Shown here one piece after another: positions 3 through 59,086 of a DNA stretch of 64,000 nt. A program made the translations under genes and the position numbers. Origin of the DNA: Erysipelotrichaceae bacterium (GTDB taxonomy: Bacteria > Bacillota_I > Bacilli_A > RFN20 > CAG-826); the NCBI GenBank assembly GCA_015059065.1, contig SVBE01000007.1:759-64758 (forward strand), written 5' to 3'. The stretch's first letter is position 1. Each line of letters starts with the position of its first letter. The notes under the pieces were generated by a model. That model saw only the letters and a program-made list of their open reading frames with translations. It was not told where the DNA came from and did no database searches.

Positions 3-914
3 TCCACTTTAGTGACTATCACTAATGAATATAAGGTTATGTATATCTTATGTTTCTTATTGTTATTACTAAACATATACATATCATTCATATATCTACT
101 CAACCATATACATTTTAAAAAGCAGTTTATGTGGCTATGTATAGCTGGTATAGCAATTGGATTCTTTATGCTTATATATTCATATATCAAAGAATGGGAG
201 ACATATAAGTTGTTCATTGAAAATATGTCCACGACTGTTAGAACATATAACCCAAGGAGTCTCACTAATAATCAGAATAGCTTCGCTGCTATTCTTTTAG
301 GGGCGGCGTTCTGTTCATACGGATTATATGCTATTACTAACAAACACATATGTTGGATAATTGGATTATTCTTTTGTATCAATACATTCTTCCCAATGTC
401 GAGGATATGTTTAACACTATCTATTATTCTTTCTTTAATGATATTTGCCTATAAGATGTTCGTGACTTATAAAGGAAATGAAAAGAGGAATAATATCGCT
501 ATCATATCAGTTGTTGGAACAATATTAACGTTACTCATCCTATACCTTTCAGTAAATGTCATCAGAAATTATATCGATAATGTTATCTTCACTAAAAATA
601 GTTCACTTAGCTCCAGACTACCTCTAATTGAACTCACTTTAAATATGACAGAGGGTGTTCATTCCATATTTGGTAATGGGCATGGATATTTCAACACTGC
701 GTTTTCTATTATGAATGGATCAGTTAAGATGCCACATAATCTATATGTTCAAACATACGGATCCCTTGGCATTGTTGGATTAGGCGCATTGATTGCGTTA
801 ATCATCTATGCTGTATATAGAATCGTTAGATTATATAAAGAAAATAAGGAAGCATCATTAATCTCCCTTATTGGTTTAGTTACTGTATTAATCTATTACA
901 TTGTCGAAGGATAA
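3..914 (+). CDS. O-antigen ligase/polymerase (Wzy_C-like) family polytopic membrane protein, probably 5'-truncated by the window edge
   Basis: The frame stays open from nt 3 (no stop before the GTG at 12), so the gene probably starts upstream of the window. It has multiple hydrophobic spans. A central NPRSLTNNQNSFAAILLGAAF loop is followed by further TM helices, as in O-antigen ligase/Wzy-type proteins. The call rests on motif recall only. Confidence 0.5.
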   Translation, partial: STLVTITNEYKVMYILCFLLLLLNIYISFIYLLNHIHFKKQFMWLCIAGIAIGFFMLIYSYIKEWETYKLFIENMSTTVRTYNPRSLTNNQNSFAAILLGAAFCSYGLYAITNKHICWIIGLFFCINTFFPMSRICLTLSIILSLMIFAYKMFVTYKGNEKRNNIAIISVVGTILTLLILYLSVNVIRNYIDNVIFTKNSSLSSRLPLIELTLNMTEGVHSIFGNGHGYFNTAFSIMNGSVKMPHNLYVQTYGSLGIVGLGALIALIIYAVYRIVRLYKENKEASLISLIGLVTVLIYYIVEG

Positions 915-919
915 TATAG

Positions 920-2032
920 CTATTTATGCTTATTGATCTCTTTTAACTCATTACGTGTTTTATCGTGTTGTTTAAAAAGTCCTCGGAACAATCTGAATGT
1001 CCAAGCGATAGGAATTAATATATGATGTTTGTACGCCCACGGATAAAGGATTTTATATTCTGTTACAGGCGGGAAGATACGAGAGAATATATATTTAAGC
1101 CTTCCTTTATTTTTAACACCTTTTTCAACCTTATTTCCTAATGTTCCGTACGTACTAGAAGAAGCAATATATAATAAGATGTCCTTCTCATTATCATCTA
1201 ACTCTTTATTAGAGAACAATTTAATAGATAAAGAATTAATCTCTTTAGAGAATTCTAATAATTCTAATTTCTCTAATTCTTTATCAATATAATCAATATT
1301 TAATTTATTGTTTTTTATGAATACATAGCAATCAATTAAATTTCTAAGCCCGCATCCGGCATTTTGATAATGCTTATGCAAATGTGCAATGTAATAAATG
1401 TAAAAATCTTCATTAGATAAATAATGTTCGTGGTCACTTTTTATTGGAGATCGTTCTAATAAACCTTCATAATAAGGAACCAACAATTCAAATTCTTTTA
1501 TGTGTTCAAACAAATAACGATGCATTTCAAAGTTATAAAAAGGGTCTTTCAAGTAAACATCATCTTTATCTACATCGTATGACTTAACTTTATACCCCCT
1601 ATCCGCAAAGAACCGTTTTACTAATTCTTTTTTACTGTCATCAAAAAGGATATCGTTGTCCGCGAATTCCCTTGTCGCGGGATCAGGATAATAATCTTTG
1701 ATGATGATGCCTTTTAAAGGCAGATAATCTATCTTGTTATCATTTAGGTATTTATATAATTCATTTCTCTCTTTATCAAAAAGCACTGTTTTACGGACAT
1801 TTGATAAATATGCTTCTTCTAATCTTGGTAGATATTCTTTATTGATCTTTATACCTGTATCTACTATAGCCTTATATAACAATGCTGATAAAGAATGGAA
1901 TTTAGAAAATTTGATGTAGAATGATAACTGTTTATCATCAATATCCATATCATCTAATTTCTCATTATTTAGATATGATGATAGTAGATGGATATAATCA
2001 TATAGATATTTGTTAAATACTTCTTTATCCAT
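920..2032 (-). CDS. Nucleotidyltransferase family protein (PF14907/NTP_transf_5-like); last gene of the PqqD/HprK-like cassette
   Basis: 370 aa. The segment LPLKGIIIKDYYPDPATREFADNDILFD fits the KG...Y.P...R...D.D.L signature of the 'uncharacterised nucleotidyltransferase' family that co-occurs with PqqD/HprK-like genes. It lies 5 nt downstream of the ABC gene. Confidence 0.65.
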   Translation of the reverse strand: MDKEVFNKYLYDYIHLLSSYLNNEKLDDMDIDDKQLSFYIKFSKFHSLSALLYKAIVDTGIKINKEYLPRLEEAYLSNVRKTVLFDKERNELYKYLNDNKIDYLPLKGIIIKDYYPDPATREFADNDILFDDSKKELVKRFFADRGYKVKSYDVDKDDVYLKDPFYNFEMHRYLFEHIKEFELLVPYYEGLLERSPIKSDHEHYLSNEDFYIYYIAHLHKHYQNAGCGLRNLIDCYVFIKNNKLNIDYIDKELEKLELLEFSKEINSLSIKLFSNKELDDNEKDILLYIASSSTYGTLGNKVEKGVKNKGRLKYIFSRIFPPVTEYKILYPWAYKHHILIPIAWTFRLFRGLFKQHDKTRNELKEINKHK

Positions 2033-2037
2033 AACAT

Positions 2038-3678
2038 CTATTCGCCTAAATCAATCACTTTATCAAAAAGTTTATCATCATATTTATGATGTGATATCAA
2101 TATGATAGTTCTATCACTTAAAGATAATATATTGTTCATCACTTTCTTTTCTGTTGATTCATCAAGAGATGCACTGCATTCGTCTAATAATAGGATTGGG
2201 GAAGAAGAATATATTGCTCTTGCAATCGCGATTCTTTCCATCTCTCCTAAAGATAATCCACTGCCTTTGACATTAAGGACTGTGTTTTCTTTATCATTTA
2301 ATTTATTGATGAAATCATATGATTCAGATATATGTAATGAACTGTTGAATAACTGTTCATCAACATCATTATCATATAATGTGATCACATCTTTAATTCT
2401 ACCTTCCATCAATAAATTATCTTGAGGGACATAGGCAAATAATCTTTCATATCTTTTAGATAATGGTTCACCGTTAATTAATATCTCTCCGTCATCAGGT
2501 TTAATTAAAGATAATAATAATTTAAATAAAGTAGTCTTTCCTCCCCCAGAATGACCTTTAATCAATATCTTGTCATTCTTATTAATTGTTAATGATAAAT
2601 CTTTAATCGCTTCAACTTTATGATCATATTTATCAAGATATGAATATGAGATATGCTTTATCTCAATACTATTAAATTCACCTCGATAATATTGATCAAT
2701 CTCACTCTTAGATAGATAAGATATATCATCATCTCTATCTATCATTATTCTCTCTCCAGATGCGATTAATGAATAATATCTTGGTATGATATTAGTGATA
2801 TTCCCTAATGGTCCTGTTAACTGAGTTAATAAAGCGATTAAGGCGGTTAATAGACCAATAGTCATATTGTTATCAAGGATCGCTCTTCCGCAGAAGATAA
2901 TGGCTAATATATAGAAAGAATAATAAACAACAATATATCCAATCGAGCAAGCGATAGAGAAGAGATTCCTCTTCATCCTCGCTTTCTTATAGTTAGATAA
3001 ATTATCTTCATTCTTTTTAGAAAAGATATCTTCTTTAACAAAGCTATGAATGATAGATAAGCCCTGTAAAGATTCAAAGAAGAAGATCTTGACCTTACCG
3101 TCCTCTTCTTGCATCTTTTTATGATATAGCTTAAGTCTCTTTCTAAGTAGATAAGTAAGAAGGATTACAAATACGATAGAAGGTAATAAAGATAAACCAA
3201 ATATTGGATATAGATAGATGATCGCCGCGATAGCAAGTACAAGCTGGACTACCATACGACATAAAGAAGGTAAGATGGAAAGAATGGATGATGATATCAC
3301 TGATACATCACTAGTGAGTCTATGTATCCATTCTTCATCATGAATCTTTTTAATCTCACTGTAGTCTTTGGATAATATGGTTTTATATAGATTATCTTTT
3401 AATTTGTTCTCGATATCGACATAACAATATTCATAATAGATGCGATAGAAGATTTGTAGTCCTACAAGTAATAAAGCAATAGAAGACATCGCTATCACAT
3501 AGATGATAAATAAATCATTATTCTTCTCTTCTAATGACGATATTAAAAAGCGAAGCATAAAAGAGAACGCTACTGTTAATGTCCCTAATATTATCTGAAT
3601 AATAGAAAGAAGAACAATCTTTCTTTTATTGCCCTTGATATTATTAGAGATGAAATGTAGCACTTCTTTATTCTTCAT
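2038..3678 (-). CDS. ABC transporter, fused permease + ATP-binding protein (exporter type, no C39 peptidase domain)
   Basis: 546 aa. An N-terminal ~6-TM domain is followed by Walker A GHSGGGKTT, signature LSLGEMERIAIARA and Walker B ILLLDECSASLD. It overlaps the upstream peptidase gene by 4 nt. Confidence 0.9.
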   Translation of the reverse strand: MKNKEVLHFISNNIKGNKRKIVLLSIIQIILGTLTVAFSFMLRFLISSLEEKNNDLFIIYVIAMSSIALLLVGLQIFYRIYYEYCYVDIENKLKDNLYKTILSKDYSEIKKIHDEEWIHRLTSDVSVISSSILSILPSLCRMVVQLVLAIAAIIYLYPIFGLSLLPSIVFVILLTYLLRKRLKLYHKKMQEEDGKVKIFFFESLQGLSIIHSFVKEDIFSKKNEDNLSNYKKARMKRNLFSIACSIGYIVVYYSFYILAIIFCGRAILDNNMTIGLLTALIALLTQLTGPLGNITNIIPRYYSLIASGERIMIDRDDDISYLSKSEIDQYYRGEFNSIEIKHISYSYLDKYDHKVEAIKDLSLTINKNDKILIKGHSGGGKTTLFKLLLSLIKPDDGEILINGEPLSKRYERLFAYVPQDNLLMEGRIKDVITLYDNDVDEQLFNSSLHISESYDFINKLNDKENTVLNVKGSGLSLGEMERIAIARAIYSSSPILLLDECSASLDESTEKKVMNNILSLSDRTIILISHHKYDDKLFDKVIDLGE

Positions 3679-4100
3679 TTAACTCTCCTCAGATGGAGTT
3701 TAGATAATAGATATTGTATCGGCATCCTGATATAGATGAAATTAGAGTAGAAGAACTTTCTCATCTTCTTGTCTTTATTTAGATTAATTACTCTTCCATC
3801 CTTCTTTCTAATTTCAATTAATTTACCTAATAATAAAGATCGATCAATCTTCTTATCAATAAAATAATTATAATCCCCTGCCGTAACGATAATATTATCT
3901 TTTATTTTAATAATGCGATGGAGGATATATTTATCATTATATTTATATAGAACGATATCACCTTTATGATATATATCAGTCTTTATGATATATAAGATAT
4001 CCTCTCTTTGACGAATGAGAGGATACATCGAAAACCCTACATTCGTGAAATATAGTTCTCCGTCTTTATCTAATACATCTTCAAATTTACTTAATGGCAT
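3675..4100 (-). CDS. S24/S26 (LexA/signal-peptidase-like) serine peptidase family protein
   Basis: 141 aa. GFSMYPLI matches the G-x-S-M-x-P nucleophile motif. It is followed by GDIVLY and ILHRIIKIK, which could supply the Lys general base. It overlaps both flanking genes. Confidence 0.6.
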   Translation of the reverse strand: MPLSKFEDVLDKDGELYFTNVGFSMYPLIRQREDILYIIKTDIYHKGDIVLYKYNDKYILHRIIKIKDNIIVTAGDYNYFIDKKIDRSLLLGKLIEIRKKDGRVINLNKDKKMRKFFYSNFIYIRMPIQYLLSKLHLRRVK

Positions 4101-4374
4101 TGATCTCTCTTAATTTATTCACAAAATCATTCACTGATTGATTGATAAGGTCTTTATCTTCATCTGGATAAGAATTATAGAAATGAGATAATAATTCATC
4201 CATCGTTAAATCATTATCATCAAGGAGATGAACAATCTCACTTCCCGTTTCATTAAGCTTAATAATTCCATGGAATGATTTGCTCTCTTCTTCTACTGGG
4301 ACTAGTATCTCCCCAGAAGAAGTCTTATGAATCAAAAAATTATTGTTCAGTCTCATATCTAATAATCCTTTCAT
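4087..4374 (-). CDS. PqqD family protein (RiPP-recognition-element-like peptide chaperone)
   Basis: 95 aa. The pattern ...GEILVPVEEESKSFHGIIKLNETGSEIVHLLDDNDLTMDELLSHFYNSYP...DLINQSVNDFVNKLREINAI matches the PqqD family layout (beta strands, L-N-x-T/S-G, winged helix). The start could instead be the Met at 4356. Confidence 0.7.
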   Translation of the reverse strand: MKGLLDMRLNNNFLIHKTSSGEILVPVEEESKSFHGIIKLNETGSEIVHLLDDNDLTMDELLSHFYNSYPDEDKDLINQSVNDFVNKLREINAIK

Positions 4375-5065
4375 ATGTCATCTTCGCGGCATCTATATCC
4401 ATATTGACATTAATATTATAGAAATTAATTTCTTCTAATATTATATCAATGATCTTAAGAGCCTTTTCTCTTTTATCTTTACCAGTTGGTAAATATATCT
4501 GAGATAAGAGATTAGTATATATATTGTCTTTATTATTTATCTTCTTATAACTATTCTCTATCCCCCGATTAAGGAATATCACAGTAGAAAGAGGGGCAGA
4601 TATATTATTCCCCCTTCTTTCTTTCCCGTTCCACGGGGAAGAATAAATAACGATATCATCCCCTACTTCAAGTAAAGGCTTATCATCATTGATATAAATA
4701 AATTTATCTCCTAATAATTCAGATAATAATCTAGCATGTGTTGTTTTACCTGTACCACTTCTTGCTGCGAGAAGAAAAGCATAACCATTCACCATAAAAG
4801 AAGAAGAATGGAACACGACGATATTATGATCAACAAGGATATCTGCAATCTTTCTATATAAGGCTGATATCTCTTCATTAACATAAACCTTACCATCACT
4901 TTGATAAGTAGTTTCAGCTTTTAAATCATCCTCAGTTAATGTAATTAGATAATCCGCTTTAACATCATCATCCACAAGATAATCTTTACAGTATCTTTTA
5001 GTCGTCATATTAAAAGCATTTATCTCAAATACATATCTTACTAGTTTTATTTTGAAATTAACCAT
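4340..5065 (-). CDS. HPr kinase C-terminal-like (HprK-related) P-loop protein; first gene of the cassette
   Basis: 241 aa. FHSSSFMVNGYAFLLAARSGTGKTTHARLL matches the H-(G/S)-S-x-h-x4-G-x-A-x-L-h-x-G-x-S-G-x-G-K-(S/T)-T block of HprK-related kinases found in RiPP and HPr-rel-A loci. There is no Shine-Dalgarno (SD) sequence upstream. Confidence 0.6.
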   Translation of the reverse strand: MVNFKIKLVRYVFEINAFNMTTKRYCKDYLVDDDVKADYLITLTEDDLKAETTYQSDGKVYVNEEISALYRKIADILVDHNIVVFHSSSFMVNGYAFLLAARSGTGKTTHARLLSELLGDKFIYINDDKPLLEVGDDIVIYSSPWNGKERRGNNISAPLSTVIFLNRGIENSYKKINNKDNIYTNLLSQIYLPTGKDKREKALKIIDIILEEINFYNINVNMDIDAAKMTYERIIRYETEQ

Positions 5066-5079
5066 AACTATATGGGTCT

Positions 5080-5108
5080 ATTATACATTTTTGTATAACT
5101 CTTGAGAA
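5080..5108 (-). promoter_or_regulatory. Candidate sigma-70-type promoter of the cassette (TTCTCA-17 nt-TATAAT)
   Basis: On the minus strand the -35 TTCTCA is at 5108-5103 and the -10 TATAAT at 5085-5080, with a 17-nt spacer. The -10 ends 14 nt before the ATG at 5065 and no SD intervenes. This implies a very short-leader or leaderless mRNA. Confidence 0.4.
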
Positions 5109-5245
5109 TAACAACCCAATATTCACCCGTGGGAACATATAGTTCGGACGAAGAGTCATCTACATCCTCAGAAGAACAGGCAAGTTCTGAGATGGAGGTT
5201 GATAGTGATGATGAAACAGGGTGGAGTCCAATAATTTGGTTCTAG
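5099..5245 (+). pseudogene. Remnant of the 3' end of a Ser/Glu-rich lipoprotein gene (paralogue of 9608-10186)
   Basis: The open frame after the TAA at 5096 reads ...YSPVGTYSSDEESSTSSEEQASSEMEVDSDDETGWSPIIWF*. This parallels the acidic S/E-rich tract and the ...DSDSGWGSIRWPD* C-terminus of 9608-10186. It occupies the equivalent position upstream of a small peptide gene. It has no signal peptide, lipobox or repeat domain. Confidence 0.35.
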
Positions 5246-5247
5246 CA

Positions 5248-5274
5248 GTACAAGAGTTTTAGGAGGAATTGTAC
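5248..5274 (+). promoter_or_regulatory. 6-bp stem (GTACAA/TTGTAC) enclosing the Shine-Dalgarno (SD) sequence, abutting the ATG of the 45-aa peptide gene
   Basis: 5248-5253 pairs with 5269-5274. The 15-nt loop contains AGGAGG. The same geometry, with a different sequence, occurs at 9588-9613. Confidence 0.4.
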
Positions 5275-5412
5275 ATGGGAGAAAAGAAAAAGAAGTTTAT
5301 TATACCAGAAGCTGAACTGGTTGATTTCACAAATGATGACATCATCACAACTAGTGTTGGTACAGACCAATTACAATGGGGTGATGGTGGTGCCAATACG
5401 GATGATTTCTAG
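5275..5412 (+). CDS. Unannotated 45-aa peptide (conserved K-rich F-x-x-P-E-x-E...NDDIIT-x-S N-terminus, acidic Trp/Gly C-terminus)
   Basis: The sequence is MGEKKKKFIIPEAELVDFTNDDIITTSVGTDQLQWGDGGANTDDF*. AGGAGG (5261-5266) lies 8 nt upstream of the ATG. The stop TAG overlaps the SD of the next gene, whose ATG follows 13 nt later. 19 of the 27 N-terminal residues are identical to the paralogue at 9441-9587. It is absent from the ORF track because it is under 60 aa. Confidence 0.75.
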   Translation: MGEKKKKFIIPEAELVDFTNDDIITTSVGTDQLQWGDGGANTDDF

Positions 5413-5425
5413 GAGGTAGTTTGAG

Positions 5426-7492
5426 ATGAAAAGAAAATTATTATTAGGAATACTTCCAGTTTTAATGAGTTTGTCCGCATGTGGAGGTGCAAACCAAAAA
5501 GCAAATGATTATTTCCAAGAAGACGCTTTGCTTCATGAAGAAATCTTTGGATCTGTTGAGAGCGCAATAGAATCAAAAGCATTTCGCAACCTTGATCCAA
5601 TTGGCCCAGCAGTTCCATTAATTGGTGTTCAACAACAAACATATACAGATTCAAGAGATTCTAAGCAATATCTTGCTGTTAGGTTTGTTGCTGTTGTCAA
5701 TCTTCCAGATTTATCAACAACCATTAAATGGGATAGAGGTATATACGAAGATGATGGAGACTGTCATAAAGCATTTGATAAGCCATTAGTAGCTACAACG
5801 GTATATGAATCTATTTATGATGGTAGCAGTTTAGTCAACATTTCAGCTTATGAAGGGTATACACATTTTGCAACATATACAGTCAGAAAAATACCAACAA
5901 ATAAGACAGGCTATTTTATCAAAGCATCATTAACTATTGGCAATGGCGAGCCTAGTAAGCAATATGCAACATCTGTTGATTTAACTAAGCAGGTTTCATT
6001 TAAGTTTAACACACCATATTCAGGATATTTCTTACAAGGAAAACGCGGTGAAGAACCAAACGCTACCACTTATGCTGACGACGGTGAAATCCCTGCTGGT
6101 AATCAAGCTCGTTTTACTACTTCTTTAGCAGCAAGTGACAACTTCTTTGTTGTTTATAATTATGAAGGTGCTACACCAGAAGAATCTAAATTTAAAATTC
6201 TTGGTTCTGAAATTTTAACTGGTAGTGAATACGCTAATATATTCTTTGAAGACACAGAAGGAACTAGTGCAAAGATTAATGTTAAAGCATCAAATGACTA
6301 TGTCTTATATTTAGATAATAGTAATATCTTACAATCAGATGAAATACATACAACAGCTATCGCTTTACAACATGGCGGTGTTGCTTGTTCTTCTGCTGAT
6401 TTATATCTCGGATTAGACGAAGATGCAACTTTTGAATTAACTGCAGTCACTACTCCAGCTGTGGTATCCGATAATGTAACTTGGGAATCTAGTGATACGA
6501 ACGTTGTTACTGTTTCAAACGGAACAGTTGCTCGTGTTGGTGCAGGAACAGCAACGGTCACAGCAACATCTAATGGCCAAACAGCAACATGTGCTTTCAC
6601 TGTACATAAAGTTTATGAAGGTGCAGTATATAGATCTGATGTTAAAGTTGGATCGTTTGATTTTGGCGAAGGTGCTGACAAAGGAGATTATACCGAATAT
6701 GCCTCATTGGTAAGCACCGTTAATACTGATGACATTATTATAATGTATAAAAATGGCGTGCAAATTTATCCAGGTGCATCTAATTCGGATGGAAACCTAG
6801 AGTATAATAATGAACATTTATTAAGAGTAAAAGATGGCGGTGCCAACTTAAGCTTATACCTCAAAGACTATGGGTCAGGTTATGATACATGGTTTGATAA
6901 TCCAGTATATACGATTAATAGATCTGCGAGCGGTGTCCGTACATTATGGTTCAAGTCAGCTACAAACGAATGGTGTGGAACCCCAGCCGTTTTTAAAGCT
7001 GGTGAATCATTCAGTGCTTATGATAAATGTGGCAACTTGTTAGAATATGGTCCAGACGAATGGTCGTTTGGAACAAAGGATTCTTACAAGTCCTACATTT
7101 CATATAATGATGGTGTTTATACCGCACTTAAAGATTTTGAAGTAGATGTTTATGTAAAGATTGACCAAAAAATCATATATTTCGGTACTCAGTATCCTTA
7201 TTATTTCTTATCAGGTTCATTTAATTCATGGGCTTACCAAGATAGCAATTATAAATTGGTCATAACCGATAATGCTGAATATAAGTTAGCTTTTAGCGTT
7301 TCAAAATCAGAAACATTCAAAGTTACTTCTGATAGTGATTCGCCAACTTGGTACCCTGATGGTAAAGATAATAACTACTCAATTGACTCAGAAGGCAATT
7401 ATATCATCTACTTTGACCCAAATAAAAGAACTGATCAAGGTTGGTATTATGATTATTTCTATGTGCAAAAAGTAGTTACAAGTAACTCATAA
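5426..7492 (+). CDS. Large surface lipoprotein with a Big_2 (bacterial Ig-like) domain; paralogue of 7582-9426
   Basis: The signal and lipobox are MKRKLLLGILPVLMSLSAC-GG. The N-terminal ~250 aa align with 7582-9426 (HEEIFG, PLIGVQ, RFVAVV, YEDDGD, GYFL.G, ARFTTSL..DNF.VVYN). A Big_2-like segment ATFELTAVTTPAVVSDNVTWESSDTNVVTVSNGTVARVGAGTATVTATSNGQTATCAFTV lies at about 6424-6610. The C-terminal GSFNSW-type module may be glycan-binding. Confidence 0.85.
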   Translation: MKRKLLLGILPVLMSLSACGGANQKANDYFQEDALLHEEIFGSVESAIESKAFRNLDPIGPAVPLIGVQQQTYTDSRDSKQYLAVRFVAVVNLPDLSTTIKWDRGIYEDDGDCHKAFDKPLVATTVYESIYDGSSLVNISAYEGYTHFATYTVRKIPTNKTGYFIKASLTIGNGEPSKQYATSVDLTKQVSFKFNTPYSGYFLQGKRGEEPNATTYADDGEIPAGNQARFTTSLAASDNFFVVYNYEGATPEESKFKILGSEILTGSEYANIFFEDTEGTSAKINVKASNDYVLYLDNSNILQSDEIHTTAIALQHGGVACSSADLYLGLDEDATFELTAVTTPAVVSDNVTWESSDTNVVTVSNGTVARVGAGTATVTATSNGQTATCAFTVHKVYEGAVYRSDVKVGSFDFGEGADKGDYTEYASLVSTVNTDDIIIMYKNGVQIYPGASNSDGNLEYNNEHLLRVKDGGANLSLYLKDYGSGYDTWFDNPVYTINRSASGVRTLWFKSATNEWCGTPAVFKAGESFSAYDKCGNLLEYGPDEWSFGTKDSYKSYISYNDGVYTALKDFEVDVYVKIDQKIIYFGTQYPYYFLSGSFNSWAYQDSNYKLVITDNAEYKLAFSVSKSETFKVTSDSDSPTWYPDGKDNNYSIDSEGNYIIYFDPNKRTDQGWYYDYFYVQKVVTSNS

Positions 7493-7511
7493 TATCGTAT
7501 TGAAAACAATT

Positions 7512-7545
7512 AAAAGGACCTCGCGTCGTTTGCGAAGTCCTTTTT
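7512..7545. terminator. Bidirectional rho-independent terminator between the convergent lipoprotein genes
   Basis: AAAAGGACCTCGC (7512-7524) pairs with GCGAAGTCCTTTT (7532-7544) with one C.A mismatch and a 7-nt loop. There is an A-run on one side and a T-run on the other. Confidence 0.7.
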
Positions 7546-7581
7546 ATAATTTGTTTTTAGAGATTAATATGTTTGTTTGAT

Positions 7582-9426
7582 TTATTCTGCAGGTGTTTCT
7601 GGGGCAACATATACATAATGACCTATTTTCTGTGCCCAATCAGCGCTTTCATCATACCAAACATAAAAACCATTTGTTGTGATATCGCTCAAACTAATAT
7701 TGCTCGTTTGAATAGAATATGAATTCTTGCTGCCGTTAAAAATAATATAGTCATATGTGTTAAAATCTACATTGTCTAATTTGTAAACGGCTTGATCAAA
7801 CTCATTATAGTGATCGACCGTCATAGCGATTCCTGGCCACTCTGCGTTCTTAACTTCAGGGTTTGCATCTGCTTTCCAGGCATACAAATTAACATTTGAC
7901 CAGCCATCTGAGTTAGTAAAGTAAACAGTAATTGAACTTGTAATAATAGGACCGCTTACATATAATTTATAACTTTTGTTCACATAGAATGTATGAGTCC
8001 CGCTTTCTAACGCGACATAAGATTTGCTACTACCACAATCTGGGAATTCGAGAATAACGTCATACCCTCTAATAAACGCAATTCTTTCGCCTTTTTCTAA
8101 AGGTATCTCATACTGGGCAATATTGTTGTCGGTATCTTCAACTTCAACAGAATAACTATCTAGATTTATTGATTTACCACCTTTGGTAGCGGATAAATCT
8201 GTTGGATAATCCAGCCACAACGCATAACTTACATAATCATATGTTTTAAACCATAACCCAAGATTTGATCCTCCGTTAACTATGTAACCCGATTCATTAA
8301 TGTTTGCTCCTTCATCTGGAGTAATAGAAGCAGTTGATATTACATTGCCATCATATGAGAAAATCAATTGAGTGTTGGTCTTAGGAGAAATGTTAACGTT
8401 AAAATTCTTTAGATTATTATTACCAAAACCCCAAAATGGTAAAGGAATCGTGTTAGATGAGCTATCATTAGCCGTATACGTTAATGTAAATCCTGTTTCG
8501 ACATCGATTTCACCACTGTTATTAAGATAAAAAACATAATCACGGGTTGTCCATGTTTTTATTTTCGTTGTAGACCCATCATCTTTAAAGAAATATGGAT
8601 TGGTGCTAAGACAGTTAGAATCATAAACGATAAACTTAGATTCGCCTAATGTATTAACATCGTGATTATACACAAGATAGAAATTATCTTCAGAAGTGAG
8701 CGATGTTGTAAAACGAGCTACTTTACCATCTGGTAAAGGGTTAGTGTCATAGTCATCATCTTCACCCAACACTTCTCCTGGCTCACCACCTATTTGTCCT
8801 TTAAGGAAATAACCAGTCTGTTCAGCAGGGAATAAAAACTGTTTTGATTGGTCAACCAATGTTGCCAACATGTCAGTTTTAACGCCATTAAGAGTTAAAT
8901 ACGCGTTTAAAAAATAATCTTTGTAAGTAGTTTTGGGGATATTAAGTATTGTATAAGCCAAGAAATGAGTATAGCCAGACGCCTCTGCTAAACCTTGTTC
9001 TTCGTCGAATGCAGACATATCGTACTCAACGTTGTTGTTGTAAACACTAGTATAAGCTTTTGTGCACTCGATTACTGCTTTTTCTTGTCCGTTTACCACA
9101 AACACATCACCGTCTTCATCATACATTCTTCTAGTCCAAGAAGCGGACGTAGATGTTAAATCAGTTAATTTAACAGCAGCAATAAACCTAAGAGAAATTT
9201 TACCATCTGCTTCTTTTGTTTGAACACCAATTGTCGGAACGCCTGGATACCCTGGATTGATTGCATTCTTACGAACCTTCTTTAATCCGTCTTGGATGTT
9301 GCCAAAAATTTCTTCATGGGCTAATGTGTCTTCGTGGAATAATCCGTTTTCGACTTGTGGTTGGGCTCCTGCGCAAGATCCTAAGAGCATTAAAGCAGGA
9401 ACCAAAGTTAATAATAATTTCTTCAT
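7582..9426 (-). CDS. Large surface lipoprotein, paralogue of 5426-7492, with a C-terminal CBM25/26-like module
   Basis: The signal and lipobox are MKKLLLTLVPALMLLGSC-AG. It shares its N-terminal domain with 5426-7492. The C-terminal ITVYFTNSDGWSNVNLYAWKADANPEVKNAEWPGIAMT...YIIFNG (about 7600-7935) matches the VYF..W..V..Y.W......WPG..M pattern of starch-binding CBM25/26 modules. Confidence 0.85.
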   Translation of the reverse strand: MKKLLLTLVPALMLLGSCAGAQPQVENGLFHEDTLAHEEIFGNIQDGLKKVRKNAINPGYPGVPTIGVQTKEADGKISLRFIAAVKLTDLTSTSASWTRRMYDEDGDVFVVNGQEKAVIECTKAYTSVYNNNVEYDMSAFDEEQGLAEASGYTHFLAYTILNIPKTTYKDYFLNAYLTLNGVKTDMLATLVDQSKQFLFPAEQTGYFLKGQIGGEPGEVLGEDDDYDTNPLPDGKVARFTTSLTSEDNFYLVYNHDVNTLGESKFIVYDSNCLSTNPYFFKDDGSTTKIKTWTTRDYVFYLNNSGEIDVETGFTLTYTANDSSSNTIPLPFWGFGNNNLKNFNVNISPKTNTQLIFSYDGNVISTASITPDEGANINESGYIVNGGSNLGLWFKTYDYVSYALWLDYPTDLSATKGGKSINLDSYSVEVEDTDNNIAQYEIPLEKGERIAFIRGYDVILEFPDCGSSKSYVALESGTHTFYVNKSYKLYVSGPIITSSITVYFTNSDGWSNVNLYAWKADANPEVKNAEWPGIAMTVDHYNEFDQAVYKLDNVDFNTYDYIIFNGSKNSYSIQTSNISLSDITTNGFYVWYDESADWAQKIGHYVYVAPETPAE

Positions 9427-9440
9427 ATATTTTCTCCTAC

Positions 9441-9587
9441 TTATTCTCCAAATGTCTCACCGTCTTCGTCAGTCCAACCGGCGTTACCTTGAGCTTCAGC
9501 TAAACCTGACCCCGTTATAATGTCATCGTTTTTAAAATCGAATATTTCTAATTCTGGTTTTAAAAACTTCTTTTTCTTTTCCTCCAT
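9441..9587 (-). CDS. Unannotated 48-aa peptide, paralogue of 5275-5412
   Basis: The sequence is MEEKKKKFLKPELEIFDFKNDDIITGSGLAEAQGNAGWTDEDGETFGE*. The ORF track lists it as a 64-aa ORF (to 9635), but the extra 16 codons overlap the upstream gene. GGAGG (9604-9600) precedes the ATG at 9587. The stop lies 14 nt before the lipoprotein ATG, and AGGAG sits between them. Confidence 0.75.
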   Translation of the reverse strand: MEEKKKKFLKPELEIFDFKNDDIITGSGLAEAQGNAGWTDEDGETFGE

Positions 9588-9613
9588 GATTAAGATTTTC
9601 CTCCATGTTAATC
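9588..9613 (-). promoter_or_regulatory. 6-bp stem (GATTAA/TTAATC) enclosing the SD, abutting the ATG of the 48-aa peptide gene
   Basis: In minus-strand sense the sequence is GATTAA-catggaggaaaatc-TTAATC-ATG, with a 14-nt loop containing GGAGG. The left arm includes the TAA stop of 9608-10186. It is the structural counterpart of 5248-5274. Confidence 0.4.
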
Positions 9614-10186
9614 TGGCCATCGGATTGAGCCCCATCCACTGTCGCTATCTTTCTCAACAGCGTAATATGTTGCTGTTACCGTTAGGTCTGAGGTTACCGA
9701 TGAACAATCCTTATCCCATCCTTTAAATGTATAAGAGACAGTATCAGTTCCCTCTCTTGTAGGTGTGTCGCCTACATATATTGCATTACCGCCTTCACCA
9801 ACATCCGTTTCATATAACGTAGTTCCATCATAGTTTTGGAAAGTTACATGATATGCTACTGGTGTTGACTCACTCGAATCCTCTGTGTAGGAACTATATG
9901 TTCGCTCGGGGTCTGAAGAACTGATTTCTTCGACTGAGGATTCCTCTTCCTCACTTGAAGAGATAGGTTCATCGGAAGAATATTCAATTTCACTAGAACT
10001 TGACGTTTCTATGCTGAATTCTTCCCCTTCATCAGAGCTTATAGTCTCTATCGATGATTGAGTGGACATATTCGTTGTCGTGTTACTGGTAGTAGATAAT
10101 TCACTAGAAGTAGTATTACCACTACCACAGGATGCTAAAGAAAATATTGCGAACAAAACAAAAGTAACGCTTAAAGCTTTTTTCAC
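9608..10186 (-). CDS. Ser/Thr/Glu-rich lipoprotein with one Listeria-Bacteroides (Flg_new / InlB B-repeat-like) domain
   Basis: The start is GTG with GGGGGAAA upstream. The lipobox is FSLASC-GSG. A ~90-aa S/T/E low-complexity linker follows. The C-terminal YHVTFQNYDGTTLYETDVGEGGNAIYVGDTPTREGTDTVSYTFKGWDKD...TVTATY is typical of the Flg_new repeat. Confidence 0.8.
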   Translation of the reverse strand: MKKALSVTFVLFAIFSLASCGSGNTTSSELSTTSNTTTNMSTQSSIETISSDEGEEFSIETSSSSEIEYSSDEPISSSEEEESSVEEISSSDPERTYSSYTEDSSESTPVAYHVTFQNYDGTTLYETDVGEGGNAIYVGDTPTREGTDTVSYTFKGWDKDCSSVTSDLTVTATYYAVEKDSDSGWGSIRWPD

Positions 10187-10315: not shown

Positions 10316-11734
10316 CTACTCTTTGTTTTTGCCAAGTAAATAAGCGTATGCTAATGCAGGTATACGATATAATTTAGTACCATTTCTATCAAATAGACCA
10401 AAATCATCAACTTCTTTGCTAACTACATATCCTGGCACATCTTTCATGCCATAGACGATAATACCGTCACTATCCTTGATATGAGCCTTGTGTCGATATT
10501 TAGCCTCAACATACTGGATATCTCTACCATTTTCCTGGATAATAATATCAATCTCTTGCCCTTTGTCATTCCTAATATAACCGACATTATATAATTCGTT
10601 ATCAACCGATAAGAAATAATCTCTCGTGTGTTTTAATGATACGGTTTCAATAGCCATACCAAGTTCATTATCATCGGTAACGATATCGTTAATGCGTGTT
10701 ACTGCACATCTAACACCATAATCAGATATGTATATTTTTCTTTTTGGTTTCAACGCTTTTTTGCCACTAGCGTCAAGCTGATCAGAGATATAGATGAGAT
10801 TAGCTTTTTCTAAAGCATCGATATAAAGGTTGCATGTGCTTCGATCAATACCAATGCTACTAGAAATAGTCTCAATCTTTATAATGTCGCCACTATGATA
10901 ACAGAAATAGGCGTAGAGATTAGCCAAAGCATCAACATCTCTAATAGGATGGGAACTAGGAATATCCTGTCGAATAGCTTTGCTCACCACTTGATCACGG
11001 ATAAGACGAGAAACATAATTATAGTCCTCGCTCAAAGCATATTCTGGAAATCCGCCTAAACGAAGATAGCGATAAAACTCACTATTAAGAGTGGCTATAT
11101 TGTTATAAATCATCGTTTGTTCATCAAGAGGCAAAGCATGAAGTTTGAATACATCAACATTAGGAAGATTTAAATGTTTGCCATTAATTTCACAAAATTC
11201 ATAGAAAGAAAAAGTCGGTATTTTGATCGTCAAAAATCTGGCAGCCCCAGATTCACCGCTATCTCTTTCAATTTCTACAGAAGAAGAGCCACTAATCATT
11301 ACTAAGCATTTCTTATTGAGGTCATATATCTCTTTGACATAACTTTTCCAAGTCTTATCTTTTTGAGCCTCATCAATGAATAGATAATAATCTTGATCTG
11401 GATAGACAAACTTTTGATACACCCTCACCACTTCTTTGATGGTTACATTATCGTTTGGAAAATCATCAAGGGTGTAAAACAATATTCTCGATGGCTTAAC
11501 TCCTTCGCTTAATAATTCATCAATTATTTGAAACATAATAGTTGATTTACCAACACGTCTAGGACCAGAAAGAACAGGGAAGCGTCTAATCTTATTAAAG
11601 AAAACATACTTCACTCTTTTATATTCATTACGCTTAAAAGATGGAGCTAGTTCTGTATCAACTTTGCCAGTAATCCACCACCTATTTTGCTCCTGAATAT
11701 TTCTTAATATTAATTGTTCTTCATTCATCACCAT
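10316..11734 (-). CDS. AAA ATPase, AAA_14 + DUF4143 type (orphan)
   Basis: 472 aa. It has Walker A GPRRVGKST and Walker B YLFIDEAQ. The C-terminal region has the DUF4143-like layout. It is monocistronic. Confidence 0.8.
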   Translation of the reverse strand: MVMNEEQLILRNIQEQNRWWITGKVDTELAPSFKRNEYKRVKYVFFNKIRRFPVLSGPRRVGKSTIMFQIIDELLSEGVKPSRILFYTLDDFPNDNVTIKEVVRVYQKFVYPDQDYYLFIDEAQKDKTWKSYVKEIYDLNKKCLVMISGSSSVEIERDSGESGAARFLTIKIPTFSFYEFCEINGKHLNLPNVDVFKLHALPLDEQTMIYNNIATLNSEFYRYLRLGGFPEYALSEDYNYVSRLIRDQVVSKAIRQDIPSSHPIRDVDALANLYAYFCYHSGDIIKIETISSSIGIDRSTCNLYIDALEKANLIYISDQLDASGKKALKPKRKIYISDYGVRCAVTRINDIVTDDNELGMAIETVSLKHTRDYFLSVDNELYNVGYIRNDKGQEIDIIIQENGRDIQYVEAKYRHKAHIKDSDGIIVYGMKDVPGYVVSKEVDDFGLFDRNGTKLYRIPALAYAYLLGKNKE

Positions 11735-32941: not shown

Positions 32942-34642
32942 TTAGCAATCCACACTGCTATAATATTCTTCTAGTTTATCACGACATGCTAAATATATCT
33001 TCTCTAATCGTGGATCAAATTGTTTGCCCATCTCAGAAAGGATGATTTCATTAGCCTGTTCAAAAGAGAATTTCTCTTTATAAACACGCTTACTAATCAA
33101 AGCATCATAAACATCCGCGAGGGCCATGATACGGGCTTCAACAGGGATTTGTTCTCCCGCTAATTTATCAGGGTAGCCAAGGCCGTTATATTTCTCATGA
33201 TGATAATGAGCGACATTAACAGCAATACTCTTTAATTCTTGATCATCAAAGCCTTCTAAGATACGAGAAACGATTCTTGCTCCTTCGGGGGCGTGGGTCT
33301 TCATAATCTCATATTCTTCAGGAGTGAACTTTCCTGGTTTTCTTAATATTTGATCATCGACTGTGATCTTTCCTAAGTCATGCATAGGCGCGGCTTTAAT
33401 CAGTTTATTACAGAATGAGTCAGAGAGATTGAATAAACCTTGTTTCTTAATCTCCTCAACGATGATTCTAATCGCGTCGCTTGTCCTTTTAATATGGCCG
33501 CCTGTAGAATTGTCTCTACCTTCAACCATCGTGGCCATGCCTAAGACGAGTTGGTCTTGCATCTCGATGATGTGTTTGGTCTTCTCCACCACTTCTTCTT
33601 CAAGCTGGGTATTATAGTTAGTAATCAGTTTGATATATTCTTGGTTCTTTGTGTCGTCTGTAACCAAGAATTGATATCCATGGGAGAAGAATCTTCCAAG
33701 GGTGAGTTTACCCACTCTCACGAGATAAGTTTTATCGTTATGCTCAACATAAAATTTATCATGAGAATTATCGTTTTTATATTCTTCAACCCAACGTGGG
33801 AAGTTGTCGTTGATCCACTTGTTATTTGATTTATGGTCAACCACTAATTCATTGAGTTCTGGGAACATCTCTTTCGCCGTTAAATTGCTATCTAGATATC
33901 TCATCTTCACATCAAAAGATATAAAGCCAGTATCGCCCTTTTCCACTAAGGCATCAACCACGGAATCAGAAGCGTTATATAGTCTTAATCTAGAAGCGAT
34001 GATGATATAGAGGATAAGCCCTAAATTATATGTCGCAGGAAGGATCTCTAACTTATTAGAGAATATCTTGCTTCCAAAGAAACCAAATACAGCGATAGAA
34101 ACAGAGACGATAATCATCACTAATATTGTTAACGGAACTTGTTTCTTTTTAATAAAGCAGTAGATAATTGCTCCAAAGGTGATGAGATAATAAACGATCA
34201 CCATCGCATAGAATACCGTGTGCATCGGCCCATAATGACGGTTAGCGAGATAACTAGCCCCACCATAGGTATCTAAAGTTGGTAAGCCTTTATAAAATAA
34301 GTCGTTATAGCCAATTGTTAAAGTGGTCGCATAAACACCCGTGGAGATCAATAATATTAACACTCTTAACCACGGATTAAGCTTTATGCCACATATATTA
34401 AAGATGAGGAACATCACTGCCACTAATAGATAGCATCCCCCAATATATGTGATACGTAAACCGATCAATGCTTCTTGCACCACCGTGGCTTTTGCCATCA
34501 CTACAAAGCCTAAATTGATGATGGGGACTAATACGGCAATAATTGTCAAATTCGTGTCGAAATGCTTATGAAAGATAAAAGCATAAACCACAACTGTGAC
34601 TAACGCGACTGCAAACATCAGATAATAAAACACAAGCGCCAT
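32942..34642 (-). CDS. Membrane-anchored HD-GYP domain c-di-GMP phosphodiesterase
   Basis: 566 aa. An N-terminal ~7-TM domain is followed by HDLGK and HHEKYNGLGYP (HD-GYP signature). Confidence 0.85.
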   Translation of the reverse strand: MALVFYYLMFAVALVTVVVYAFIFHKHFDTNLTIIAVLVPIINLGFVVMAKATVVQEALIGLRITYIGGCYLLVAVMFLIFNICGIKLNPWLRVLILLISTGVYATTLTIGYNDLFYKGLPTLDTYGGASYLANRHYGPMHTVFYAMVIVYYLITFGAIIYCFIKKKQVPLTILVMIIVSVSIAVFGFFGSKIFSNKLEILPATYNLGLILYIIIASRLRLYNASDSVVDALVEKGDTGFISFDVKMRYLDSNLTAKEMFPELNELVVDHKSNNKWINDNFPRWVEEYKNDNSHDKFYVEHNDKTYLVRVGKLTLGRFFSHGYQFLVTDDTKNQEYIKLITNYNTQLEEEVVEKTKHIIEMQDQLVLGMATMVEGRDNSTGGHIKRTSDAIRIIVEEIKKQGLFNLSDSFCNKLIKAAPMHDLGKITVDDQILRKPGKFTPEEYEIMKTHAPEGARIVSRILEGFDDQELKSIAVNVAHYHHEKYNGLGYPDKLAGEQIPVEARIMALADVYDALISKRVYKEKFSFEQANEIILSEMGKQFDPRLEKIYLACRDKLEEYYSSVDC

Positions 34643-52503: not shown

Positions 52504-52707
52504 ATGACGTACGTTTCCTTTCAATTTTGTGATTACCACTTTAAAAAGTGGACCAATTGACAAGAAAAAAATATCAAAAAAAACATATGAAATAAATAAT
52601 TTATTAATGGAATTATACTTTTTTTACATAGATGTAACTCAGTAGTTCACTTTTATTGAAACTAAATGCATTTTGCTTCTGCAATAATAAATGATTTTTT
52701 TCTACCC

Positions 52708-58054: not shown

Positions 58055-59086
58055 TTAAGCAACGGTCTTGTTCTTGCCGCTTCTTTTACCAGAATACATC
58101 TTCTCATCAGCAAGGTCGACCCATTTCTGAAGGTCTTTCCCACCGATATATTCCATCATACCAATCGTGATGGTGAGATTAATGTTCATATCTTCAAAGA
58201 TGAACTGTTCTTTCTCCACCGTTTTTCTAAACGTATCTAATCTTTCAAATGGGGTGTTGAGTTTATTGTCTTCAAGAACGACGACAAATTCTTCTCCGCC
58301 ATAACGACAGATGAAACAGTCCTCTAATGTCTCTTTAGTGATCTCTGCAATTCTCTTTAAGACATAGTCACCAGCAACGTGGCCATATGTATCGTTGATC
58401 TTTTTAAAGTCATCAATGTCAAACAAGGCGAGAACTTTCTTAGACTTATCAGCTTCTTGTTCGAAATAATCATATAAACCATATCTATTCGCGATCTGTG
58501 TTAATTCATCAGTTCTTGATTCCTTTAATATCTTCTTTTCAAGAGACATCGCATATTTAATGAAGATAGCGAGGAAGAATGTGATAAGCGCGAAGACAAT
58601 CACCGCGTGAATAGTAAACAAAGTCATTTCTAGCCATTTATCAATAGTATAGAAAGGCGCGTTAAATTCACTGACAAAGAACAAAGTGAGGTATATCACT
58701 AATGAGAGGGCAACCCAAATATATGAGTTTTTGATATTCTTTTTGTTGGAGAAATATGTCGTAAAGAAAGAGACGACACAGAATGCGATTAAGAAGAAAT
58801 GGAACCCTGTTGAAAAGCCAATCATCAAAGATGAAAAGATGATGAAGGCGAAGAATTCATTCCCACAGCATAAAGCGTAAATATAGTATTTCTTATATTT
58901 GATGAGCAAAAAGAATAATAGATAGATACCGACGATAGCCGCGGTCACATAGACCATGACATAAAGTTTAGCGATCAAGAACAAAGTTAAGTAGAAAAGA
59001 TGCAAAATCAAATAGCCGATATTTGCGGCGTAGCAGGTTTTATCAATCGTCCTATAGCGACGGGCTTTTTCGTTAGTTACTGGCAT
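58055..59086 (-). CDS. Membrane-anchored GGDEF diguanylate cyclase
   Basis: The start is set at the ATG at 59086 (MPVTNEK...) because GAGGAGG lies 7 nt upstream. It overlaps the end of the upstream HD-GYP gene by 14 nt. The protein has ~6 TM helices, then DELTQIANR...DIDDFKKINDTYGH.AGD...RYGGEEF. Confidence 0.85.
   Translation of the reverse strand: MPVTNEKARRYRTIDKTCYAANIGYLILHLFYLTLFLIAKLYVMVYVTAAIVGIYLLFFLLIKYKKYYIYALCCGNEFFAFIIFSSLMIGFSTGFHFFLIAFCVVSFFTTYFSNKKNIKNSYIWVALSLVIYLTLFFVSEFNAPFYTIDKWLEMTLFTIHAVIVFALITFFLAIFIKYAMSLEKKILKESRTDELTQIANRYGLYDYFEQEADKSKKVLALFDIDDFKKINDTYGHVAGDYVLKRIAEITKETLEDCFICRYGGEEFVVVLEDNKLNTPFERLDTFRKTVEKEQFIFEDMNINLTITIGMMEYIGGKDLQKWVDLADEKMYSGKRSGKNKTVA

Follow-up and report, generated by a model that had tools for sequence, protein, structure and literature searches.

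The window (the whole stretch of DNA analysed, 64,000 nucleotides) carries near its left end two gene modules that face each other as mirror images, as an earlier note on this DNA had claimed, and all of their open reading frames were recovered where that note had placed them. The right copy, on the minus strand, starts with a gene for a 192-aa lipoprotein (9608-10186), continues with a gene for a 48-aa peptide (9441-9587; ATG start behind GGAGG) and ends with a gene for a 614-aa lipoprotein (7582-9426). The left copy, on the plus strand, comprises a candidate 3′ remnant of the first gene (5102-5245), a gene for a 45-aa peptide (5275-5412) and a gene for a 688-aa lipoprotein (5426-7492). A bidirectional intrinsic terminator, which the note had also proposed, is common to the two convergent operons (7512-7544, both strands) and is well supported by a 13-bp stem flanked on either side by T-runs, with -22.2 and -21.6 kcal/mol (z = -6.0 and -6.6) on the two strands. 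The mirror image may be pictured as a duplication in which two peptide/lipoprotein operons were set tail to tail and one of them lost its first gene. At the left edge of the window lies a gene for a Wzy_C / O-antigen-ligase-like membrane protein (12-914, plus strand; Pfam Wzy_C, E = 1.3e-7), a polysaccharide-locus neighbour outside the core parts, which was also seen at loci L001, L002 and L004 and was absent from L025-L029.

Proteins of the two modules

The 688-aa and 614-aa lipoproteins have a 316-aa N-terminal region in common (39% identity, E = 7e-57), a highly significant alignment that confirms the similarity noticed earlier, while no significant similarity was found in the alignment beyond about residue 310, in line with the further claim that the C-terminal halves differ. 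The conserved N-domain of the 614-aa protein consists of two beta-sandwiches (residues ~63-312), and the C-terminal part that follows it contains a CBM26 match (Pfam, E = 2.7e-11). In the 688-aa protein the N-domain is followed by Big_2 (Pfam, E = 3.6e-8) and then by a C-terminal GSFNSW-type module. C-terminal halves of N-domain lipoproteins appear, from their sequences, to be shuffled between loci.

The 192-aa first-gene lipoprotein has a lipobox (LASC), an S/T/E-rich linker, one Flg_new-type domain and a conserved tail, SGWGSIRWPD. Its Flg_new match in Pfam reached E = 0.0047 only, which is below the cutoff; the domain is nevertheless clearly conserved, since the final 100 aa of nine homologues are 46-84% identical. 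The open reading frame at 5102-5245 keeps only an acidic stretch and a GWSPIIWF tail, and it matches the C-terminus of the 192-aa protein with E = 0.003 (BLASTP); at the DNA level one 30-nt stretch is 80% identical to the first gene. Both share the tail motif GW(S/G)(P/S)I.W and sit just 5′ of a peptide gene. The open reading frame lacks both a signal peptide and a convincing ribosome-binding site. That it is a degenerate remnant of the first gene, as had been suggested, is plausible from the tail motif, the position and the E value but unproven, and it is the weakest part of the observation.

Candidate maturation cassette and putative precursor peptides

LPPs (linear polyphosphorylated peptides), a class of RiPPs, became known only in 2026, when they were found in 80 out of 9173 complete genomes of Bacilli and neither a final product nor a biological role was reported; their clusters, ordered lppA-K-B-S-D-N, have been described from Paenibacillus alginolyticus and further Bacillales (Popov et al., Nat Commun 2026, PMC13381572). 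Five minus-strand genes to the left of the modules resemble lppK to lppN. The one closest to the modules (4340-5065) encodes a candidate HprK-like, LppK-like P-loop kinase (SGTGKT) of matching size and position; it gave weak matches only (ScmC, E = 0.031; HprK_rel_A, E = 0.18), its L001 orthologue matched Hpr_kinase_C (E = 0.0034), and weak or faint PF27840 matches on homologues were present in precomputed data. Metagenomes contained 869 homologues of the kinase. A discrete PqqD-type RiPP recognition element (RRE), LppB-like, is encoded at 4087-4374 (Pfam PqqD, E = 4.9e-10) by a gene that overlaps both of its neighbours, and its profile similarity to published LppB is weak (8-15 bits). The gene at 3675-4100 encodes an LppS-like leader peptidase of the archaeal/ER signal-peptidase-I-like type (TIGR02228 sigpep_I_arch, E = 1.2e-9), which is 33-35% identical to four published LppS proteins over ~105 aa (E = 1e-13 to 6e-9). 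Its Ser24, His61 and Asp76 align with the catalytic triad of LppS, where they are invariant and where catalytic mutants S29/H68/D93 have been described (PMC13381572). An LppD-like ABC exporter of the MsbA type, with fused permease and ATPase (2038-3678; Pfam ABC_membrane, E = 2e-30; ABC_tran, E = 2e-24), has MsbA-related NCBIfam matches and lacks a C39 peptidase domain, and an LppN-like NTP_transf_5 nucleotidyltransferase (920-2032; Pfam PF14907, E = 4.6e-39) completes the cassette.

The order K-B-S-D-N is the same at the window, L001, L002, L004 and L025-L029, with the NTP transferase as the last gene at 9 of 9 cassette loci, and the polysaccharide-locus neighbours Wzy_C and Wzz are present near the cassette, as reported for LPP. 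Since this content and order, with the kinase as a candidate, equal the published lpp core and the peptidase is homologous to LppS, we read the cassette as lpp-type. A lasso peptide cluster was rejected, as the Asn-synthetase-like cyclase (C) and the transglutaminase-like leader protease (B/B2) are absent at the window and at all nine cassette loci; in the window, no Asn-synthase match was found among the large ORFs of the 64 kb, and the region from 1 to 12 kb has no gene for a B2 protease or a macrolactam cyclase.

The first 27 residues of the left and right peptides are 70% identical (E = 5e-12), and the tails differ. For the left peptide, which matches the family profile with E = 5e-21, we propose a leader of M1-T25 followed by Ser27 and an acidic 18-aa tail. 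These peptides belong to a family without previous annotation that numbers at least 753 clusters; all members are 32-69 aa long, with a conserved N-terminus and a variable tail. The leader consensus is [F/Y]xxPx[A/L]...DIIT-x-S, in which 99% have F or Y at P-3, 95% have A, L, I, V or M at P+2, and the distance from Pro to Ser is 16 in 153 of 154; the Ser is conserved in 100% and a Thr at Ser-2 in 83%. Cores are Gly/Asp-rich and nearly Cys-free, with a mean net charge of -4.5. The leader motif is, by its pattern of residues, an LPP/lasso-like RRE motif with a different spacing. Because the conserved leader fits both the RRE motif [Y/W]xxPx[L/V/I/F/A] and the logic of cleavage and phosphorylation at FET|xxS, the peptides are best read as putative LPP-type RiPP precursors; no other candidate precursors were found near the cassette.

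A peptide gene lies immediately upstream of each of the 19 N-domain lipoprotein genes (19 of 19) and immediately downstream of each of the 12 distinct first genes, which are present once per operon. Gaps between peptide genes and their neighbours are 2-30 nt, and one natural in-frame peptide-lipoprotein fusion was found (P0009). These data show what looks like translational coupling of each precursor gene to a surface-protein gene. The order of Flg_new lipoprotein, peptide and N-domain lipoprotein recurs at L001 (twice, also mirror-image), L002, L003, L004, L025, L027 and L028, which agrees with the conserved three-gene order put forward in the earlier note, but the minimal unit is smaller than the triad: the repeated core, as seen at L013, L025 and L027, is a peptide followed by a lipoprotein. 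At other loci the peptide lies between a secreted Big_2/Big_3 protein before it and an endonuclease I protein after it, and at type B loci the peptide gene is the last before the terminator. Partner proteins of the peptides are either nucleases or proteins of 400-950 aa that contain CBM26, CBM_6 or Big_2 modules, and peptide cores that are nearly identical occur with different C-terminal modules. The cassette was present at four of the five loci found through the lipoprotein (the window, L001, L002 and L004); L003 has a complete triad, yet no cassette was found within 8 kb of it. Conversely, of the cassette loci found through the kinase alone and selected solely by the length of their contig, 4 of 4 distinct ones had 1-3 peptide genes right beside the kinase gene, either divergent, co-directional or with Wzy_C interposed, and at L029 peptides lie beside the cassette though their partner proteins are unrelated (Big_2/Big_3, endonuclease I). 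In an AF2 model of the natural fusion the peptide stayed undocked on the N-domain, with peptide pLDDT below 50-52, and a direct complex of the two therefore has no structural support.

Proposed system and alternative readings

We consider it probable, by analogy with the published clusters, that positions 920-10186 of the window form one system, a divergent LPP-type RiPP cluster of uncultured rumen Bacilli. The earlier note had treated the role of the module as unknown and the PqqD/HprK-like genes as adjacent. The adjacency and the conserved unit stand, but the peptide reads as an LPP-type precursor and the cassette as its machinery, which changes the role and the extent of the finding; the latter is best read as reaching left to about position 920, since the cassette would belong to the same system.

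If the system works as the characterised lpp system of P. alginolyticus does, the RRE would bind the [F/Y]xxPx[A/L] motif of the ~25-residue leader, the kinase would phosphorylate, probably more than once, the invariant Ser that lies two residues past the conserved Thr, and the SipW-type peptidase, with the leader presented by the RRE, would cut after that Thr (IIT|xS). The NTP transferase may further decorate the phosphoserine, and the exporter would secrete a short, acidic, Gly/Asp-rich, Trp-containing product. In the sequences the small Ser/Glu-rich Flg_new lipoprotein heads the operon, and the surface partner here is a lipoprotein whose tandem beta-sandwich N-domain is specific to the family and whose carbohydrate-binding C-terminal end is interchangeable. 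The exported phosphopeptide and the lipoprotein may act together at the cell surface, where the conserved N-domain could have the peptide as its ligand or tether. Because every N-domain lipoprotein in this lineage is encoded immediately behind its own precursor, we tentatively suggest, as a possibility rather than an expectation, that LPP-type phosphopeptides are dedicated partners of cell-surface proteins and not free antibiotics or signals: a polyanionic peptide, phosphorylated and perhaps glycosylated, might be bound by or tether the N-domain on a probably wall-poor rumen bacterium, or link these proteins to the capsule.

The strict adjacency, the fusion P0009, the L003 triad without a nearby cassette and a beta-strand-like alternation in the conserved part of the peptide would also suit a peptide that assists the lipoprotein structurally, as its partner or chaperone (it might complete a beta-sheet, for instance), with the cassette serving another substrate. 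We find this improbable: the lipoprotein domain is extracellular, but the peptide lacks a signal peptide; unrelated proteins, too, are accompanied by peptides, which at L029 still lie beside the cassette; the cassette has no other precursor candidate nearby and the leader has an RRE motif; and AF2 left the peptide undocked. Equally improbable in our view are bacteriocin-immunity pairs, in which the peptide would be an antimicrobial RiPP, the lipoprotein a LanI-like immunity protein and the cassette shared as in blp/pln. As in blp, pln and LanI loci, several pairs of precursor and downstream gene adjoin one maturation/export cassette and the partners are lipoproteins; both cores and partners vary here, and lantibiotic immunity proteins are lipoproteins. 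However, the strongly anionic, nearly Cys-free cores are unlike typical membrane-active bacteriocins, the very large, multi-domain partners with carbohydrate-binding modules, or the nucleases, are far from known immunity proteins, and different C-terminal modules go with nearly identical cores.

It is very unlikely that the peptide gene is a regulatory upstream ORF, that is, a leader peptide controlling translation or transcription of the lipoprotein gene. The gap or overlap from peptide stop to lipoprotein start is very short and the peptide is always 5′ of N-domain genes, but conservation at the amino acid level over the 753 clusters, in which the Ser is invariant and its spacing from the Pro fixed, the position of the peptide last before the terminator at type B loci, and the linkage to an RRE cassette all argue against it. 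Least credible of all is an invertible shufflon in which recombination between the inverted sequences of the peptide or first genes decides which lipoprotein gene follows the promoter and the intact first gene. Inverted arms do exist (5274-5348 and 9514-9588), one first gene is degraded, and the window is chimeric with respect to L001, its 192-aa protein being closest to the right copy there and its peptide and lipoprotein to the left copy. A DNA-inversion shufflon was nevertheless rejected: instead of near-identical inverted repeats with a site-specific recombinase, the best pair of arms is 75 nt long and only 77% complementary, without a long exact core, no recombinase gene is nearby, modules are co-directional at most other loci, and rare homologous exchange over evolutionary time explains the chimerism equally well.

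A divergent LPP-type cluster coupled to surface proteins remains our preferred reading. If the surface-partner role is true, it gives LPPs their first functional context and defines a new kind of two-gene surface module. The strict coupling of the genes in itself offers a concrete clue, open to testing, to what LPPs do at the cell surface. Both the ~45-aa peptides and the lipoprotein N-domain are large, previously unannotated families that can now be named.

Comparison with known systems

SipW of Bacillus subtilis is likewise an ER/archaeal-type signal peptidase I encoded beside its substrates, TasA and TapA. Unlike SipW, the window enzyme has no N-terminal membrane anchor, its substrates are ~45-aa peptides and not Sec signal peptides, and it would work with an RRE on a leader without a hydrophobic core. 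Phosphorylated lasso clusters of the paeninodin, pseudomycoidin and Bsf types have an NTP transferase, a discrete RRE and an ABC exporter in common with the window, and an HprK-like kinase for which the window has a candidate; they also have a YxxPxL-type leader with a Thr near the cleavage site, and Ser phosphorylated on the linear precursor. They differ in having a macrolactam cyclase and a B2 cysteine protease, whereas the leader peptidase here is of the serine SPase-I type, and the cores here have no Asp/Glu at positions 7-9 from any plausible first residue.

The LPP clusters of P. alginolyticus and other Bacillales are the best match. They share five maturation/export genes in the same order, of which the kinase gene of the window is a candidate, a SipW-type leader peptidase (33-35% identical, with the triad), a discrete PqqD RRE, the lack of a lasso cyclase, a polysaccharide-gene neighbourhood, and precursors whose conserved N-terminus bears aromatic-xx-Pro, whose conserved Ser closely follows a Thr, and whose C-termini vary but are rich in Gly/Asp/Asn. 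Published LppA precursors have the consensus YxxPxVLxHQxIxFET|xxS (PMC13381572), whereas the leader here reads [F/Y]xxPE[A/L]E..F..DDIIT|xS, with 14 residues from Pro to Thr versus 12, Ser at +2 versus +3, and mostly Phe as the aromatic residue. The window peptides thus depart from the LppA consensus and keep only its logic of aromatic-xx-Pro-x-aliphatic, Thr and Ser; published LppA precursors went undetected by the profile of the window family (at most 2.8 bits), and the RRE is barely similar to LppB. This distinct leader dialect bears on how RREs discriminate precursors. The cluster here comes from an uncultured Bacilli lineage of the rumen and not from Bacillales, and its precursors are interleaved with surface (lipo)protein genes, an association that is absent from the published LPP set, where Big_2 occurs in 2 of 126 and Flg_new or CBM in none. 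The family here is also much larger and appears abundant in rumen metagenomes (at least 753 peptide clusters and 869 kinase homologues), a divergent LPP branch that seems hard-wired to secreted nucleases and to surface lipoproteins whose modules bind starch or glycans.

Two facing modules in the window

The earlier note had described two mirror-image copies of a three-gene module across a shared terminator, and the ORF list together with the sequence places every element of both copies. On the minus strand, the right-hand module starts with a first gene for a 192-aa lipoprotein (9608-10186; lipobox LASC, a linker rich in Ser, Thr and Glu, and a single Flg_new-type domain), followed by a 48-aa peptide with its own GGAGG (9441-9587) and a 614-aa lipoprotein carrying a Pfam CBM26 domain (7582-9426). 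The plus-strand copy consists of a short ORF (5102-5245), a 45-aa peptide (5275-5412) and a 688-aa lipoprotein with a Pfam Big_2 domain (5426-7492). Between them lies the bidirectional terminator, a stable hairpin at 7512-7544 with about -22 kcal/mol on each strand, a z-score of about -6 and U-runs on either side.

Formal alignment established the proposed common N-terminal domain of the large lipoproteins (39% identity across 316 aa, E 7e-57), and no significant similarity was found past this region, in agreement with the differing C-terminal halves, Big_2 versus CBM26. Identity between the two peptides is 70% in the N-terminal 27 residues (E 5e-12), after which they diverge; the peptide had no family match in Pfam or NCBIfam. 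The softest claim is the one on ORF 5102-5245, a candidate remnant of the first gene judging by its sequence. It matched the 192-aa protein by BLASTP (E 0.003), had 80% DNA identity to the first gene in one 30-nt stretch and shared the tail GW(S/G)(P/S)I.W, although it has neither a signal peptide nor a good ribosome-binding site.

AlphaFold2 modeled the N-domain as two beta-sandwiches with pLDDT of 75-93. A metagenome protein of 483 aa, P0009, is a natural in-frame fusion of peptide and lipoprotein, in which the stop codon is gone and the ribosome-binding-site region reads SAQEGRI. In its model the lipoprotein part reached pLDDT 80-93, while the peptide part, which had no alignment depth, stayed below 52 and showed no docking on the N-domain; MAFFT had misplaced the separate peptide rows. 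When both models were compared with the PDB by Foldseek, only generic tandem Ig-like folds and weak matches to arrestin, isoamylase and pilin structures came up (TM ≤0.17). Arrestins recurred among the weak matches of both searches (probability ≤0.35, TM ≤0.16). Arrestins are two-beta-sandwich proteins that bind phosphopeptides, and with a phosphopeptide predicted as the partner here, this weak resemblance may serve as a lead, not as evidence. Conservation in the lipoprotein family is highest at the motif F.EDTLAHEEIFG, which directly follows the lipobox (9300-9341, residues 29-42 of the 614-aa protein; 5513-5554, residues 30-43 of the 688-aa protein) and was modeled with low confidence.

Elsewhere in the window, a 4764-aa ORF (38269-52563, minus strand), presumably encoding a huge surface protein, contains three MBG_2 domains and a Flg_new repeat. 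Two minus-strand ATPase genes are of the AAA_14/DUF4143 and ATPase_2/DUF234 types (10316-11734 and 52708-54081), the former directly adjoining the right-hand module. HD_5 (HD-GYP-like) proteins are encoded at 32942-34642 and 59073-62132, both on the minus strand, the larger one with a Y_Y_Y domain.

Recurrence of the module in metagenomic loci

The N-domain gave 15 word-index matches, all metagenomic and none with a Pfam domain, and a single match, the rumen MAG 'Bacilli bacterium', in 185,579 species genomes. The gene order of the triad is conserved in the other loci reached through the lipoprotein: locus L001 contains a mirror-image pair of triads as in the window, and L002, L003 and L004 contain one triad each. 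HMM scans found 39 peptide genes across all fetched loci. Each of the 19 N-domain genes whose 5′ flank was covered was directly preceded by a peptide gene, and each of the 12 distinct first genes was directly followed by one. The first gene is single and heads the operon, leaving peptide and lipoprotein as the repeated core; of the four peptide genes in L013, three precede an N-domain gene on the DNA that was fetched, and L025 and L027 have two peptide-lipoprotein modules apiece. The large proteins have C-terminal modules that are swapped between loci, and the 688-aa protein has one in common with a 471-aa protein of L001, yet their N-domains are not the closest pair.

The nearest relative of the 192-aa protein was the right-hand first gene of L001 (64%), and those of the adjoining peptide and lipoprotein N-domain were in the left-hand copy of L001 (85% and 55%). 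Modules of the window and L001 are thus chimeric with respect to each other, which suggests exchange between inverted modules. An invertible shufflon is less well supported as an explanation of the inverted duplicate; a shufflon or phase variation was rejected as a current mechanism, since identity between the inverted peptide arms reaches just 77% and no recombinase is encoded nearby. A 3006-nt JGI metagenome contig (Ga0307902_100915, L009) encodes a first gene, a peptide and a lipoprotein whose ORF lengths equal those of the right-hand module, with a 100% identical peptide.

Five loci (L005, L015, L020, L024 and L029) have another arrangement, type B, in which a large secreted Big_2/Big_3 protein comes first, the peptide begins 4-30 nt further on, and a terminator separates it from a protein of the endonuclease I family. 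The C-terminal domain of the upstream protein was considered as a homolog of the lipoprotein N-domain and rejected (hhalign probability 0.1).

Linkage of the peptide family to the cassette

A profile of seven peptides, searched against 1.84 billion representatives at E ≤1e-3, matched at least 753 proteins, all of 32-69 aa. Alignment A2 served for the metagenome scan in place of the wide peptide alignment A4, whose diversity was too high. Among 154 family representatives, the residue three before an invariant Pro was Phe in 77% and Tyr in 22%, the residue two after it was A/L/I/V/M in 95%, the Pro-to-Ser distance was 16 in 153, and Thr stood two residues ahead of the invariant Ser in 83%. The tails had a median of 18 aa and a mean net charge of -4.5, were rich in Gly, Asp, Glu and Asn, contained Trp in 59% and almost never Cys. 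An aromatic residue occurred within the last six residues of 77% of the tails, which tend to close with acidic residues plus Trp or Phe, and [E/N]WG[S/P]I.WF is the C-terminus of every first-gene lipoprotein (window 9608-9640; L001, L002, L003, L004, L025, L027, L028). The two kinds of ends may share a C-terminal recognition motif.

Left of the modules, five minus-strand genes form a cassette encoding an HprK-like P-loop protein (the kinase), a PqqD protein (RRE), an S24/S26-like peptidase, an ABC exporter and an NTP_transf_5 protein. The kinase had a weak NCBIfam match to ScmC, a SynChlorMet cassette protein, and 869 homologs. The cassette was present in four of the five loci reached through the lipoprotein, L003 being the exception. 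In the reverse direction, cassette loci were chosen on contig size only, giving four distinct ones (L025, with its duplicate L026 counted once, L027, L028 and L029). One to three peptide genes lay immediately upstream of the kinase gene in all four; three had N-domain lipoproteins, and L029 had a type B module directly beside the cassette. Peptides and cassette may be divergent, co-directional or separated by Wzy_C, and the linkage is constant.

The cassette is part of the same system as the modules. That the peptide is a partner of the lipoprotein independent of the cassette is less well supported. Bacteriocin-immunity pairs, in which peptide and neighbor would be toxin and protection, and a regulatory upstream ORF ahead of the lipoprotein gene, are likewise less well supported readings of this adjacency. 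The observation of the earlier note stands, and its interpretation, which holds in part, needs widening: 920-10186 is probably one system, a divergent cluster of the linear polyphosphorylated peptide (LPP) type, a RiPP class.

Comparison with published LPP clusters

LPP clusters have the order lppA-K-B-S-D-N, often within capsule loci, and encode precursor LppA, HprK-like LppK, RRE LppB, SipW-type LppS, MsbA-like LppD and NTP transferase LppN (Popov et al., Nat Commun 2026; PMC13381572). Experimentally, LppK puts one to four phosphates on core Ser3, and LppS cleaves after Thr-1 solely when LppB presents the leader, whose consensus is YxxPxVLxHQxIxFET/xxS (slash, cleavage) ahead of variable C-termini; the function is given as unknown (PMC13381572). 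A divergent family peptide (MKNKFEKPELEIVLFESDLETDFIDVSG...; L025 9784-9924, L026 2881-3021) is encoded after a 945-aa secreted protein gene and immediately upstream of the kinase gene, the position of canonical lppA. The lipoprotein motif F.EDTLAHEEIFG loosely resembles VLxHQxIxF of the published leaders, without YxxP.

We compared the window with Supplementary Data 1 of PMC13381572. The published LppA were not detected by our peptide-family profile, and that dataset held no 'DIIT' precursors, no non-Bacillales taxa and no Flg_new or CBM neighbors. Neither the window RRE nor the peptide profile matched LppB/LppA (9x8z) in a PDB sequence search. A lasso peptide was rejected: neither a cyclase nor a B2 protease is encoded, and positions 7-9 lack an acidic residue that could form the ring. 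Cleavage after Ser27 (T-x-S/, by the (-3,-1) rule) was also set aside, because in LPPs the cut falls after Thr and Ser is the phospho-acceptor (PMC13381572); IIT/xS is now favored for the window peptides.

Beyond the observed peptidase homology, cassette content and order, peptide conservation pattern and genetic linkages, analogy with LPPs suggests that the RRE would bind the leader motif [F/Y]xxPx[A/L], invariant Ser27 would be phosphorylated, the leader would be cut after Thr25 and the product exported. The exported acidic phosphopeptide may then act jointly with the co-encoded surface protein, a step we infer from the coupling alone and for which the structural models give little backing.

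As in LPP clusters, the window peptidase retains the Ser/His/Asp triad of LppS; its identity to four LppS proteins is 33-35%, with E down to 1e-13. In contrast, the RRE is only weakly similar to LppB, window leaders have two more residues from Pro to Thr, the family Ser is at +2 and the aromatic residue is mostly Phe. The same machinery and logic with another leader dialect indicate a divergent LPP branch, and its coupling of precursor to lipoprotein, unrecognized before, gives a lead on LPP function that can be tested.
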